The notes: generated by a model not told the origin, from the letters alone. DNA of 64,000 nt from Octopus vulgaris (GCA_951406725.2 OX597821.1:32116001-32180000); one strand, 5' to 3'; counted from the stretch's first letter, positions 32,036 through 63,191 are shown. Numbers and translations: made by a program.

Positions 32036-32268
32036 ATTTCTTTACTACCCACAAGGGACTAAACACAGAGGGGACAAACAAGGACAGACAAAGCGATTAA
32101 GTCGATTCCATCGACCCCAGTGCGTAACTGGTACTTAATTTATCGACCCCGAAAGGATGAAAGGCAAAGTCAACCTCGGCGGAATTTGAACTCAGAACGT
32201 AACGACAGACGAAATACGGCTTCGCATTTCGCCCGGCGTGCTAACCTTTCTGCCAGCTCGCCGCCTTA
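32036..32268 (-). mobile_element. SINE family B, young subfamily with Tx1-like tail
   Basis: Head GGCGGCGAGCTGGCAGAAAGGTTAGCACGCCGG..GAGTTCAAATTCC, core GCCTTTCATCCTTTCGGGGTCGATAAATTAAGTACC, tail TTGTCCCCTCTGTGTTTAGTCCCTTGTGGGTAGTAAAGAAAT. Confidence 0.88.
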
Positions 32269-32724
32269 TATTTTCTTTTAAATATAATTTATGCACGTGC
32301 TTCTTATATTTTAACTCATGAGATTCGAATAATATTGAATGGAAAAGAAAACGATAGTCCTTCAGCGGAATATTGTAGAGAGGCAGAAATTTCACTCGGA
32401 ACACTTCCAGATAGACATGCTGACTTTGAAGTTTATTTGGAAAACCATACCTTGAGACGGTGGTTTTGCTTTAAAGTTTACAAAGAGGAATTTAGTCTGG
32501 AATAGAATGAAGAATTATATGGGGAAGTTCCAAACGACGCAAGTCAAATGTTTACGACCCATTCTTAAGCATTGTTGTTTATCAAGACTTTTGTTCACAT
32601 ACTCTCTGTGGTTTCTTTTGTATTTTTCCTCTTAGTGAGAAAGGTTTATGTGTATGTGTATACGTACACACACATACACACACACACACACATATATATA
32701 TATATATATATATATATATATAAT

Positions 32725-32801
32725 TACGTTATATTTAAAACATTACGTTATATAATTTACTGAACCCTAATTATATAACGTAATGTTTTAAATATACCGT
32801 A
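32725..32801. repeat. Hairpin with 33-bp arms inside (TA)n
   Basis: TACGTTATATTTAAAACATTACGTTATATAATT / AATTATATAACGTAATGTTTTAAATATACCGTA, 1 mismatch, 11-nt loop. Confidence 0.9.
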
Positions 32802-34923
32802 TATATATATATATATATATATATATATATATATATATATATATATATATATACATATATATATAGATAGATAGATAGATAGATAGATAGATAGATAGAT
32901 AGATAGATAGATAGATAGATAGATAGATAGATAGATAGATAGATAGATAGATAGATAGATAGATTCAACGTATAGATGATATAGGTGAAATAGGAAGATC
33001 AAATGAGCTTGATTTTCGTTTGAGTTTGCGAGTAGTGTGTATATGGCAAACATTATCACGTGTCACAAATCAAACATAATATCATAATGTAGCCACTGGG
33101 AAATTGGCACATCGATAGAATGTTTGGCAAAATGTAATTCGATATTTAGTTCACTTGATAGATATACATTCAGAGATATATATTCAAATCAAAATCTTGT
33201 GATTCAACCTAGCCGTTCCCATCAGTAGACGATAAAATAATTATCCATCGGGTATTGATTAAATCAAAGCGCATTTTATATGAAACATTGTGCCAATATT
33301 ATATTGTACTTTGTGTGGCTTGGGATAAAGTAGCAACAGGATTCACTACAGTTTCCTTGGAGCTGAAATTAGCATTTCAACGTATCATTAATTTTATGAT
33401 ATCGTTACTGTCACTCGATTATATTTACTATTTTGTGATTATTCGATCATAAGACAGAAACATTAGAACAGTTTGCATAAACCTTCACCGTTCTTTCAGT
33501 TTTCCAGTATAGATCATCATATGTCACGTTACCCTAGTACCATTTCAGATGGTTGGTTTAACTTGTACGGCTTCTGATCTTCAATTTATCTAAACAGCGC
33601 TAGCTTTCTGAAATCATCATTAGATCGTTTAAGACGTTTTAGGTTGCTGTATATAGATTAATTATGGCTGTTTCACCCATTTGTAATTAATTCTAGTAAT
33701 TAAATTTCTATTTCTAAATACTTTTACCATTATTTTAAACTAAATACACAAAATTTTCAAACAATGACTCTAGAAGTATAAGGGAAATCTCAGATCATTA
33801 AATACTAAAACTGCGTGGTTCGACTTAAGTTGCTAATAGTTATAATTGAATGCCTCTGATGCATTATGGTCATTAGTCCCCTTACAGATGTAAAGAGAAA
33901 GTTATAAATGATATGATCCATCGATGTTGACCGCTCAGAAACAAAATGTCTGACAATAACAAAATGCAGGTAATAAACAGGTGTTGAATATTTTTTTCGA
34001 AGTTGAATAATTATATAGAGAAGATTTCACACGGCAAATGACACACGGTTTCGTCTTATAATGCATTTAAAATTTTTTTGTAATTGTTCTAATTTCATTG
34101 AGCATCTAATTGCACTACAAAAGTACGTATCCATCAACGTGCAATATGTCGAGTGGGTTATGAATTGTCTGCTGAATTCAGATTATTCTGCTTTATATGC
34201 GTGTTTAATTATATATGTTTTACATATATGTAGGTGCACTACTTTATCCGATAGAGAAAACATGACCTATTTGGTTTGGTAATGAGATATGATGTTGCTA
34301 CACCGATTTTGTATTACATATTTATAATTTAAATACTTAATATCAGTTACTGATTCCCATAATTCATGTGAAGTTTCAGACACTTGTAAGATCATATGTA
34401 ATCAGAAGAGGGATGTATGTATATATATATATATATATATATATATATATATATATATATATACGAGCAAAAACGCCCCCCCCCCCGTCCAATGGACGGT
34501 GCTGAGTTGTCAAACATTATGACCAAATTTTCTCAAAACAACTTGTCCGAACGTCCCAAAGGCCTCCCCTTTGAGAAACACTGATTTAACCTAAATTTGA
34601 GACACCAGCAAATGAAGAAGTAAAGATAGACTTATTTTCTATTCCAAAGAAAAACGATTTTATTCACACAAATATGCAACTGAAGTCTTTAAAGTACCAA
34701 GATTAATATGGCTGTTGACTGGGAGAACGCAAACATGGTTTAAACAGTAAGCTTGGCAGGAAAGAAACGTGCCTTCAAGCAGTACAAAAGCAACAAAACA
34801 TGGAAGGTGCAGTTATGTACAGGCTGACGGAAGAAGAGCAGGACAAAAACGGCTTTATCGATCGCATTCTCACCTAGAATCGAATTTTGTATTTTTTTCA
34901 AGATTTATACACGCCTTGATACC

Positions 34924-35145
34924 TATTTCTTTACTACCCACAAGGGGCTAAACACAGAGGGTACAAACAAGGACAGACAAACGGATTAAGTCGATTACAT
35001 CGACCCCAGTACTTAATTTATCGATCCCGAAAGGATGAAAGGCAAAGTCGACCTCGGCGGAATTTGAACTCAGAACGTAGCGGCAGACGAAATACGGCTA
35101 CGCATTTAGCCCGGCGTGCAAACGTGTCTGCCAGCTCACCGCCTT
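34924..35145 (-). mobile_element. SINE family B, young, Tx1-like tail
   Basis: Same structure. 12-bp TSD CGCCTTGATACC at 34912-34923 and 35140-35151, overlapping the head. Confidence 0.88.
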
Positions 35146-60507: not shown

Positions 60508-61632
60508 TCAATATATGTTTGGTGCTTTTTTATTGTTTTTTTTTTCTAGTTTGTCGCCCATCACTTGAAAACGACTGTTTGTTCCTTTACGTACCCGTAA
60601 TTTAGCAGATCAATGGAATATCATTCATACCTATAACCAACGATTTGTTTTTCGAAAACAAGCTACTTACGATCACGATTTCAAGTAAGATGTTCACTTA
60701 TAGGACATATATATCTCGGTGAGACGTTTGTATCCCGTTTAAGTAAAACTTAGACGAGATACAGTTTGTCTGAAGTAATACTGCGCTAGCGTTACTGATG
60801 TCTTTAGGTAAAAAAACATACAGAAGGCTGCCACAGATTACTCGGCTACTTTTTCATGTCTTTCTTCATCGGCAACAAATTTCATTGCAAATCGTGAGAG
60901 AAAACGAAGATTTGTATTTCTTTTATGTTTTTCCCCTACATTTATTTATTGTGTGTCTGTAATTTAATCAGCGCTCCACCATAGAACTATTAGCTTAATT
61001 ATCAATAAAATAACAAATAAATCCATGATACTGTCTAGACGTGTCGTGACAGCCTTAGATCTGAAACAACTTAGAGTTTTATCTCATATTTAATAATCTT
61101 ACCACATTCGGATTGGACACAAAATGGTACAGATCTGGAGAGATTTCAACATTTTCTAACTACTCAAGGGACAAAACACGCACACACAAGTATCTACATT
61201 ATGTATATGTGTGTATATATATATATATATATATATATATATATATATATATATATATATATATATGTGTGTGTGTGTGTGTGTGTGTGTGTGTATGTAT
61301 GTATGTACATATGCATATATATATATATATACATACATACACATATAAATTTATATATATTATATATGTGTATCCGTATATACGTATGTATATGCATATA
61401 TATATATATATATGTATATATATATGTGTGTGTGTGTGTGTGTGCATATATATATATGTATATATGTATATATATGTATGTATATATCTATCTGTTTCTC
61501 CCTCTCTTTCTTTCTCTCTCCCTCTCTACACACACAAATGCAAGAACATTATTTAAAAATTATAATATAAGTAATGCCTACTAGTATATATATATATATA
61601 TATATATATATATATATATATATACATATGAA

Positions 61633-61715
61633 TCTTTATATATATGTATATATATATATATATATATATATATACTAGTATTAAAGACCCCCTCGTTGCC
61701 GGGTCATAGTGCTAG
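61633..61715 (+). mobile_element. Minimal Helitron-like element / two-faced Helitron 3' end
   Basis: A|TCTTTATATATA start like the 56456 element. The hairpin GACCCCCTCGTTGCCGGGTC is flanked by CTAG on both sides (61675 and 61712-61715). Confidence 0.55.
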
Positions 61716-61861
61716 TGCATGTATTTATGTGTATATATATGTGTACATATTACATGTACATCTATATATATATATACATCTACACATAAAATGCAAAATA
61801 CAAAGTTATATCTTAATATCGCTAGTGATAACAATACTCAAAATATATAACAGACTGGAAT

Positions 61862-63191
61862 TGTTTTATTCCTACCCACAAGGGGCAACATAGAAGGGAC
61901 AATACAATCGGGAAAAATAAAATAATGAATTATGAAGTTTGTACTATGTGGTATAATGCCCACTCGATCCCCGAAATCGAGCGGTTACATTTCGTCATGT
62001 TTTATTCGTCAACAATATTTTCAAAATAAAAATATTTTACACATTTTCAACATACATTTCAAAAATGTTACAAAGTTTAACATTTTTTTTTTACTTCCAG
62101 AATTTAAAGTTCTTTTTATTATTTCCAAATTAAAGTTTTCACAATACCTTTTCTTTTATATATACTCCATTATCTCTACCAAATCTTGGTAATTTTCCAT
62201 CGTTCGTGGCCACCTTGTAAGTCGGCATTTCATATGTTTTGACACGTTCTTGCCAGCTGCCTCGATGAACACCTCAGCATTGTTCTCGTGGACGAGTGCA
62301 CCTGTTTCTTTCCATTCGGTGCCCATCCCGACCCACGTATATCCATCTGTTTCGCTTATTAAATCTTCCATCTCTTCACAGTGCCTGTGATGGATCAATG
62401 TTCCATAGTATTTGAATCTTTTATTCGTACCTGCATTTTCTCTAGTTTTTCTCTTAGGACTTACTTCCTCTTTTTTCTCCTCTCTCAGATTCTCTCTTTC
62501 TCTCTTTTTGCTTTCTCTTCTTTCTTTTTCCTTCTCTTGTCTTTTTGGCTCTTTGTCTGTCGTCTCTCTACCTTGTGCCTTATGTTCCTTTCCTGTTGTT
62601 TCTTTTCCTTTTTGCATACCATCTTTTCCTTTCTCTTGGTTCTGTTCCTTCTCTTGTTCTTTTCCTGTTTTTTCTCTTTCCTTTAATGTACTTTCCTTTT
62701 CTTTCTCTTGCTTCTGCCTTGGCTCCTTCTCCACTACTCCTCCTCCCTGTGAATTTTGCTCCTTTTCTACTATCTTCTTCCCTTTGTTTTCATTTTCCTT
62801 CAGTGCGCTGTTACTTCCCTTCTCTTGTTGTTTCTCCGTTATTTCCTTTTCCTTGTTTTCGCTGTTCTTTCCTTCGTGTTCTTTTTCCTTCTCTTTTTTG
62901 TTCTCTCCAGTTTGTGTCTCTTTTTGCTCCATTTCCCTCTCCGCTGTGAATTCATATAGCGGACATTCCTTTTTTATGTGCCTTCTTGACCCGCACAACT
63001 AGCAATTCGGTTTTCTCCCCTCCACAATTACACTAATTGTTTTCTCGTTTTCTATTTCTATTTGGAAGGGAAACCGTTCGATGTCTTCCATTGTGGCCAT
63101 CAGCCACAACTCTACTCCGAATCCCTTCCAATTTACAACGTTGGTCTCCTTGATTGACCCTATTTCTACTTCCTCCTTTGCTGACCCTAGA
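61862..63191 (-). mobile_element. ORF1-only (HAL1-like) Tx1-related element, 5'-truncated
   Basis: A Tx1-type ORF1 is followed by ~290 nt of 3'UTR with AATAAA and a 3' end matching the Tx1 and SINE tails. No ORF2 sequence lies between them. Confidence 0.65.
62156..63190 (-). pseudogene. Tx1-like ORF1 with CCHC knuckle, E/K-rich linker and an extra ~85-aa C-terminal domain
   Basis: Reading upstream of the listed ORF gives ...FPFQIEIENEKTISVIVEGRKPNC*LCGSRRHIKKECP, homologous to VVVEGRRPRCYLCGSETHLKKTCP of the 46968-47555 ORF. One in-frame TAG at 62999-63001. Confidence 0.8.

Follow-up and report, generated by a model that had tools for sequence, protein, structure and literature searches.

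Background

Head-to-tail arrays that mix autonomous retrotransposons with families encoding only the first open reading frame (ORF1) are known from the Drosophila elements HeT-A, TAHRE and TART of the Jockey clade, in which ORF1-only lineages persist and diversify (PMC13534243), and HeT-A, HAL1 and Ag-Sponge are all non-autonomous long interspersed elements (LINEs) that encode only ORF1p (PMC5786205). Here we describe a related arrangement in Octopus vulgaris. We analysed a 64,000-nucleotide stretch of the 2.8-Gb genome (G000:C8:32116001-32180000; hereafter the window) that carries a full-length L1/Tx1-type LINE (Tx1-A), a truncated member of an ORF1-only family (O1) and three copies of a short interspersed element (SINE), all ending in versions of one ~50-nt 3' tail; the family names Tx1-A to Tx1-G and O1 to O8 were coined in this analysis. 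It is likely, in our judgement, that this tail, common to one Tx1-like LINE clade, serves as the RNA handle at which the ORF2 protein starts reverse transcription, that a second LINE family, Tx1-B, carries the ORF1-only families and forms trains with them inside a Helitron-like element, that looser-targeting copies of Tx1-B/D type carry the SINE, and that Tx1-A is a cousin inserting into (TATC)n.

Tx1 LINEs that target DNA transposons have been described in Xenopus, where Tx1L inserts into Tx1D, and in crocodilians, where Tx1-Mar and SINEU insert into Mariner-N4; the same sources assign a SINE to a Tx1 helper and report tandem insertions around the target-site duplication (TSD) (PMC4494074, PMC1950540). 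Pairs of an L1-clade LINE and a tRNA-type SINE with a common 3' end of ~45-80 nt and a predicted hairpin are exemplified by ZmSINE2/LINE1-1_ZM of maize and SINEX-3/L1-1_CR of Chlamydomonas (PMC3747384). Among the 58 pairs in Table 1 of that review none involves Tx1 or a mollusc, and those from animals are of L2, CR1, RTE, I, Rex1 and Vingi types. For octopuses, tRNA-CORE SINEs are given as main components of the SINE content in passages that name no partner LINE (PMC8967140, PMC4824008, PMC4758252), and a count of 13 recently active L1-Tx1 families is given without detail of this kind (PMC13282606). We found no prior description of the present system in titles and abstracts, although Repbase, Dfam, SINEBase or the PMC13282606 library may already list its families.

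By its sequence organization the octopus system would be an interstitial HeT-A/TAHRE-like arrangement combined with a Tx1-tailed SINE. It shares with the Drosophila elements the head-to-tail mixing of ORF1-only and autonomous families and the lasting ORF1-only lineages, but its trains are interstitial, of L1/Tx1 type, placed at a fixed internal target with TSDs, up to eight units long as seen here and of no known benefit to the host. Membership in the telomeric HeT-A/TAHRE system itself (Jockey clade, chromosome ends) was rejected: the ORF2 is L1-type, and the trains that we fetched are bounded by genomic flanks well inside contigs rather than by telomeres. HAL1 (L1 clade) and Ag-Sponge (CR1 clade) are likewise ORF1p-only, but the octopus system retains at least three deep ORF1 lineages, ends its elements in a specific sequence instead of poly(A), and inserts site-specifically. 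Like Tx1L in Tx1D and Tx1-Mar with SINEU, the octopus system comprises a Tx1 LINE in a DNA transposon, a Tx1-linked SINE and tandem insertions around a TSD; it differs in that the target is a Helitron-like element with a captured ORF1 piece, the passengers are protein-coding, and the SINE is linked by a shared tail, whereas SINEU is linked by shared target and shared head. The homology between the octopus SINE's 3' end and that of a LINE lineage recalls the stringent SINE/LINE pairs.

Results

A 3' tail shared by LINEs, ORF1-only families and a SINE

The tails lie on the minus strand at 42459-42510 in Tx1-A, at 61862-61905 in O1 and at SINE ends 32035, 34925 and 36497, as an earlier note on this DNA had described. 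We compared each pair of tails with 2000 dinucleotide shuffles. For each of the three SINE copies no shuffle scored as high as the real match to Tx1-A (0/2000) or to the ORF1-only tail (0/2000), and 1/2000 did so for Tx1-A against the ORF1-only tail, so the likeness exceeds chance. The SINE tail quoted in the note holds as a consensus, from which copies 2 and 3 deviate. TSDs, which had been credited to two copies with 12 bp each, are present in all three (16, 12 and 12 bp by eye, the first seen again in a second analysis).

Other parts of that description did not survive. A weaker echo of the tail at about position 3066 is ruled out as a lineage tail, with 335-1171 of 2000 shuffles scoring as high and the lowest rank among 30 tails scored. 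CGAT..ATCG hairpins do exist upstream of the tail in both the LINE and the ORF1-only element, but their likeness is that of chance (650/2000 shuffles as high) and homology between them was rejected; the best hairpin within the last 160 nt of Tx1-B is different from both. The hairpin of the SINE was also rejected as LINE-derived, being body sequence common to at least four SINE types with different tails.

We counted at least seven types of this tail in autonomous elements and about ten in ORF1-only elements, mostly without poly(A), O4 being an exception. Its core contains a polyadenylation-like hexamer and is conserved over reverse transcriptase (RT) distances of ~0.5 changes per site. The shared tail marks a whole Tx1-like lineage rather than one LINE and two passengers.

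Classification and ages of the tail-bearing LINEs

The ORF2 of these LINEs contains an APE endonuclease, an RT and a C-terminal zinc domain, and its best solved relative is human L1 ORF2p (E 2e-63, vs 1e-21 for R2). ORF1 is of type I as defined in PMC5203782, with RRM and a CCHC knuckle (tandem-RRM fold matches), and target-specific insertion with TSDs was observed for these LINEs. All tail-bearing LINEs fall into one clade of the RT tree (support 100; nine rows were left out), with Tx1-A apart from Tx1-B, C, D and E (99) and a protein of Argonauta hians inside the same clade. The nearest RT relatives outside it, at 25-32% identity, are unnamed, and protein searches gave few and mostly unnamed relatives. 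Median divergence to the column majority, computed from top matches, which favour young copies, was 1.2% for Tx1-A, 1.5-2.0% for O1, 2.2% for Tx1-B and 3.2% for the Helitron-like host element. Young copies occur in all classes (medians 1.2-2.2%), and activity periods overlap.

Tx1-A has at least 3329 first-look candidates. Its 3' flank is (TATC)n or a close variant in 29 of the 30 best copies and (TTA)n in the remaining one, and (TATC)n was found at the 5' junction too, both in the full-length window copy and in 7/8 further copies, all of them 5'-truncated. Tx1-A is a microsatellite-inserting family resembling Kibi and Koshi and the crocodilian microsatellite-specific Tx1 (PMC4494074), with (TATC)n as its own repeat. 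Further autonomous families with diverged tails occur at L124, L059 and L110, two of them running into (TATC)n and one into an (ATT)n-like repeat.

O1 encodes only ORF1, which is under selection

At least 465 first-look candidates belong to O1. Length is 1.91-1.95 kb in 27 of the 28 best copies with a located 5' end, the 493-aa ORF is intact in five of the best copies and near-full in two more, and no ORF2 match was found inside O1-type units at the widened O1 loci. The label "ORF1-only" is therefore true of the family genome-wide, although the 5'-truncated window copy alone could not have shown it. The protein has a CCHC knuckle and, from fold matches, a predicted tandem-RRM fold.

O1 is no recent internal-deletion derivative of a helper: its ORF1 is only 34% identical to that of Tx1-B and 29% to that of Tx1-A, and O1/O2, O3 and O4 sit on long separate branches. 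The ORF1 tree, which excludes copies with stops or short matches, resolves three deep ORF1-only lineages (O1/O2/O2b, O3 and O4), none of them sister to any sampled autonomous family; two of its rows bear the ORF1-only label as artefacts, since O_L015_2559 is the head of a Tx1-B truncated where the locus ends and L244_7442 is an autonomous copy with an internal deletion. Using our own Nei-Gojobori script on ~180 codons, we obtained ratios of nonsynonymous to synonymous change (dN/dS) of 0.10-0.16 between ORF1-only families; within O1 they were 0.05 for shared and 0.68 for private changes. The ORF1 of O1 is under purifying selection, and the low ratio for shared and high ratio for private changes indicates that master copies of O1 need their ORF1.

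Tx1-A was rejected as the helper of O1. The tails of O1 reach scores of 81-84 with train-type Tx1-B, compared with 44 for Tx1-A, and (TATC)n flanks 0/30 O1 loci. In one train the last 49/49 nt of O1 and Tx1-B are identical, and the 150 nt preceding them show no local similarity.

Head-to-tail trains at two sites of a Helitron-like element

The main feature of the system, absent from the earlier note, is a set of head-to-tail trains of several ORF1-only lineages targeted to a Helitron-like element. When 20 O1 loci were widened to 20 kb, we found O1 arranged head-to-tail with further ORF1-only families and also, for the most part on the 3' side of O1, with Tx1-B, a 5.2-kb autonomous family whose ORF2 pieces are about 48-64% identical to those of Tx1-A and of which three copies have an open ORF2 of 1127-1131 aa. 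Downstream of the 30 best O1 loci we found an autonomous head in 14, the right part of the host in 7, another ORF1-only head in 4 and other sequence in 5. Upstream there was another unit's tail in 12, the left part of the host in 10 and other DNA in 6 (including L026, where a separate analysis shows a tail), and 2 loci were without a 5' end. Trains comprise O1, two other deep ORF1-only lineages and Tx1-B, vary in unit order and content between loci, and reach eight units and ~17 kb in the longest case.

The host is an element of ~1.0 kb with Helitron termini (5' TC, 3' hairpin plus CTAG), inserted between A and T and represented by at least 868 candidates. We located its 5' end at 23/30 loci and its 3' hairpin at 24/30, followed in 23 by CTAG and T. 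It carries a decayed Tx1-type ORF1 fragment that holds both target sites (seen in L133, an empty host copy in the G000:C26:3567654 region), so a captured retroelement piece is now a landing site for retroelements. Of the 30 best Tx1-B copies, picked regardless of O1, 23 end at host position 558-561 (site B) or 865-866 (site A). Site B is empty in 27/30 host copies. The left flank of site-A trains is without the ~300 bp between the sites, such that the same upstream sequence precedes both, and we infer a shorter host variant behind the site-A trains. One internal tail base tracks the target site, in Tx1-B (5/0 vs 0/8) as well as in the passengers (16/0 vs 3/12). Tail-to-host junctions were also seen as loose contig ends in runs of organisms B and D, although contigs cannot show transcription.

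Heads of units resemble the target, even at foreign sites with a TSD of their own (L015, L020, L023-L025), and the match between a unit's own head and its own 3' flank beats that of heads from other trains in 30/41 units (p=0.0014). Because of these two patterns, each insertion likely rebuilds the target, at which later units stack. A short unit at the right end of train A103 bears on whether units enter only at the left end. Many site-B unit heads carry a one-base change from the host site. This change would create a putative motif resembling the YY1 site in promoters of L1.

Trains occur at non-Helitron sites as well (L251, L253), and some adjoining units have identical ORF1s (five O4 units; two O2b units at H140), which may be local duplications. 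Recurring non-Helitron target sequences common to several loci (L015, L020, L023-L025, L166/L165, L251) represent other repeats as landing sites. At L123-L124 (C26:13917699-13937698) members of this lineage are densely nested, a train lying together with a Tx1-B in inverted orientation, a truncated LINE and a full element of the Tx1-A clade. Arrays at L249 (C3:181424000-181433999) and L250 (C1:216942000-216951999) combine short units (1.0-1.2 kb) with a 3.6-kb unit, all sharing the tail; the 3.6-kb unit has no ORF1 or ORF2 match. O6 (L286-L310) is an older tail-bearing family. Some of its copies retain remnants of ORF1, its 3' flanks recur, and it probably forms a second system of trains at a target of its own.

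The SINE and the probable source of its tail

The SINE is ~235 bp long, with a median divergence of 1.7% in top copies and 5.2% in 22 unselected copies. Among the SINE types of the flanks that we sampled it was the most frequent (30/63 body-hairpin matches in 664 kb). Box-like A and B motifs are visible by eye in its head, where neither ARAGORN nor Rfam reported a tRNA. It appears to resemble the octopus OR-type SINEs and likely belongs with the OR1 and OR2 CORE-SINEs of Ohshima and Okada (1994).

Body and hairpin are common to other SINE types, and only the last ~60-65 nt are this SINE's own. Median scores of 49 SINE tails were 74 against O7, 68 against O6, 58-62 against Tx1-D, 56-60 against free Tx1-B, 52-54 against train Tx1-B, 50 against Tx1-A and ~15 against shuffles. 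O7, an older ORF1-only family, has ~60 nt in common with the SINE (58-76 in eight copies), and ~45 nt of the SINE 3' end is shared with the autonomous Tx1-B/D. We also used a pattern that kept the terminal bases of the SINE but required a non-SINE 5' side; it returned 597 hits, and 26 of the first 100 were non-SINE by eye. Of 20 such regions fetched, eight had an ORF2 directly upstream at non-host sites, two of these inside SINE copies; the remainder comprised one SINE variant, ORF1-only or truncated units and some unclassified regions (the queries being Tx1-type proteins only). SINE TSDs, read in 29/30 copies, are mostly 10-19 bp at TA-rich or varied sites, and those of free LINEs are 15-16 bp. 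The SINE tail very probably originates in a Tx1-like tail-bearing lineage, and the enzyme that copies the SINE is somewhat more probably of B/D type than of another.

At least four other SINE types share the body but carry different tails (window position 31204; flanks L091-L130 and L161-L180), which makes partner swapping open to study. Tandem SINE runs with a 184-bp period occur at L098, L107 and L118, and several SINE copies run into the interior of another copy, suggesting SINE-into-SINE insertion.

Tail structure and the choice of target

The earlier note proposed a stem-loop just before the terminal A-rich bases. The RNAalifold consensus over family tails has a 4-bp stem with a 5-nt loop. 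Such a structure is plausible, but covariation is weak and two rival pairings fit equally: an extended 10-pair model has 90.1% of cells paired over 23 family tails (2 double changes; 1/500 shuffles), and a mutually exclusive 6-pair model has 90.6% paired. Under these models the tail might be recognised as a structure. Recognition of the tail itself is plausible: its sequence is conserved, the identity between helper and passenger has a sharp edge, and poly(A) is generally missing.

As the Tx1L endonuclease is sequence-specific in vitro (PMC1950540), recognition of the target by the protein is the default. Tx1-B has two end variants, however, of which one lies at host sites in 23/26 copies and the other in 0/4 (p=0.0013), although their RTs nest together and their endonuclease loop region is the same; in R2Ol, read-through RNA that anneals to the target raises insertion (PMC6530143). 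It is possible, although we hold this only tentatively, that a single Tx1-type enzyme changes its target according to how its cargo RNA ends. A host-matching end or read-through would lead to the exact host site and the sister end elsewhere, and the same rule would account for the SINE at (TA)n and for Tx1-A at (TATC)n; units would bring their own 5' landing pad, and ancient ORF1-only passengers and the SINE would run on the enzymes of one lineage, building HeT-A-like trains away from telomeres.

Features of the window

Coordinates are collected in Table 1. The near-perfect foldback element that abuts the window copy of O1 may have caused its truncation.

Table 1. Elements of the window and their positions (Tx1-A and O1 as named in the text; UTR, untranslated region; MITE, miniature inverted-repeat transposable element)
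Feature	Position	Strand	Remark
SINE copy 1	32035..32269	-	16-bp TSD
SINE copy 2	34925..35147	-	12-bp TSD
SINE copy 3	36497..36731	-	12-bp TSD
Tx1-A, full-length L1/Tx1-type LINE, ~6.1 kb	42458..48593	-	endonuclease, RT, zf-RVT domains
Tx1-A ORF1, in three frames	47722-48390, 46968-47822, 46431-46967	-	
Tx1-A ORF2, one frameshift	44351-46333, 42885-44540	-	
Tx1-A 3' tail, member of the lineage-wide tail	42458..42510	-	
(TATC)n repeat, 3' side of Tx1-A, target	42309..42457	.	29/30 copies alike
(TATC)n repeat, 5' side of Tx1-A, other target half	48594..48689	.	7/8 other copies alike at 5' junction
Tx1-A 3' UTR hairpin, not homologous to O1 hairpin	42553..42577	-	like hairpins in other A-clade copies (by eye)
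Old Tx1-type ORF2 relic, 41% to Tx1-A	2449..2856	+	no significant tail behind
Host element 3' part, target site A to terminal hairpin and CTAG	61670..61865	-	94% to empty copy; adjoins window O1
O1, 5'-truncated copy	61862..63191	-	full length ~1.93 kb, 493-aa ORF1
O1 ORF pieces, split by stop in zinc knuckle	63002-63190, 62156-62998	-	
O1 tail, Tx1-B type	61862..61910	-	
Strong GC hairpin in O1 3' UTR	61960..61984	-	-15.1 kcal/mol
Foldback/MITE-like element, arms at least 164 bp, abuts truncated O1 5' end	63192..63549	.	

Discussion

Under the arrangement that we favour, with Tx1-B carrying the ORF1-only families and B/D-type copies carrying the SINE, the ORF1 of O1 (RRM-RRM-CCHC) would be needed in cis, packaging O1 RNA and perhaps joining the helper's particle. 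The ORF2 of Tx1-B would nick two fixed host positions, and every insertion would rebuild the target at its 5' side, so that later passengers stack in front of older units. Template switching would have given the SINE a tail of this lineage, and its copying would take place in trans.

Several points weigh against this arrangement. A TSD of at least 8 bp is absent in 7/29 of the best SINE copies. We found no autonomous LINE that carries the exact SINE tail: of 141 hits to a 34-place pattern the first 100 looked by eye like rearranged SINEs, and a Tx1-style 5' side joined to the SINE end and a TA extension had 0 genome hits. Against the SINE, Tx1-B/D tails (56-62) score little higher than Tx1-A (50), and the tails compared directly were those of Tx1-type LINEs and ORF1-only families rather than of L2, CR1 or RTE elements. 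Only 2 double changes support the extended stem, and its rival likewise has 90% of cells paired. Because the copies are not independent, the Fisher p-values are overstated, and the RT tree, built without named Tx1 references, does not settle Tx1 against other L1 lineages. Finally, if the RNA end picks the target, differing insertion sites do not exclude Tx1-A as the SINE's carrier.

The earlier note took the Tx1 of the window to drive both the SINE and the ORF1-only element. That a Tx1-like lineage shares its tail with both kinds of partner, with overlapping young copies, is borne out, but the tail scores and differing insertion sites do not favour the window's own family as the driver. Tx1-A is young (median 1.2%) and abundant, its tail similarity is significant, and its SINE score is not far under those of the best autonomous tails. 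Nevertheless, O1 matches train-type Tx1-B far better (81-84 vs 44, with the 49/49 identity in one train), (TATC)n lies beside none of 30 O1 loci vs 29/30 Tx1-A copies, and SINE flanks are TA-rich or varied, such that we regard Tx1-A as a very unlikely driver. A broader alternative, which we consider unlikely but worthier of attention, is that the tail is a lineage-wide 3'-processing or priming signal by which any ORF2 of the clade carries any tailed RNA, the pairing of families arising from shared loci and RNA-end annealing. Conservation of the tail core across the clade and its polyadenylation-like hexamer fit this idea, as does the way in which the last tail bases track the target within a single RT/endonuclease family. 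Yet an internal tail base is tracked between helper and passengers at the subfamily level, and the 49-nt identity ending sharply at the 5' edge of the tail suggests finer discrimination or repeated capture from one helper.

The trains might instead be mainly by-products, with the Helitron copying a few pre-built trains, or local duplication, and little repeated targeting. The host is itself mobile, L023-L025 have common flanks, and some adjoining units are identical in ORF1, as such copying would produce. On the other hand, order and content differ among trains, junction variants chain within a locus, most host copies have an empty site B, 23/30 best Tx1-B copies end exactly at site A or B, and trains exist outside Helitron sites, which together make a by-product origin improbable. 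Repeated insertion of Tx1-B and its ORF1-only passengers at fixed sites remains the reading that we prefer.

On that reading, the finding points to a LINE lineage as the likely origin of the tail on the SINE type that prevails in the flanks sampled. It also provides a Tx1-type SINE/LINE pair of a kind not listed in the 58-pair review table, and it would place tail-specific recognition in an animal L1/Tx1 lineage. Automated repeat annotation would easily mis-build such trains as single chimeric consensus sequences. A HeT-A/TAHRE-like architecture with long-lived, selected ORF1-only passengers can arise without telomeres, and the persistence of ORF1-only elements becomes testable outside Drosophila. 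Between sister variants the RNA end differs while the endonuclease is almost unchanged. Together with young copies that have an open ORF2, these variants offer a natural experiment on target choice by protein or by RNA, a question relevant to site-specific gene insertion.

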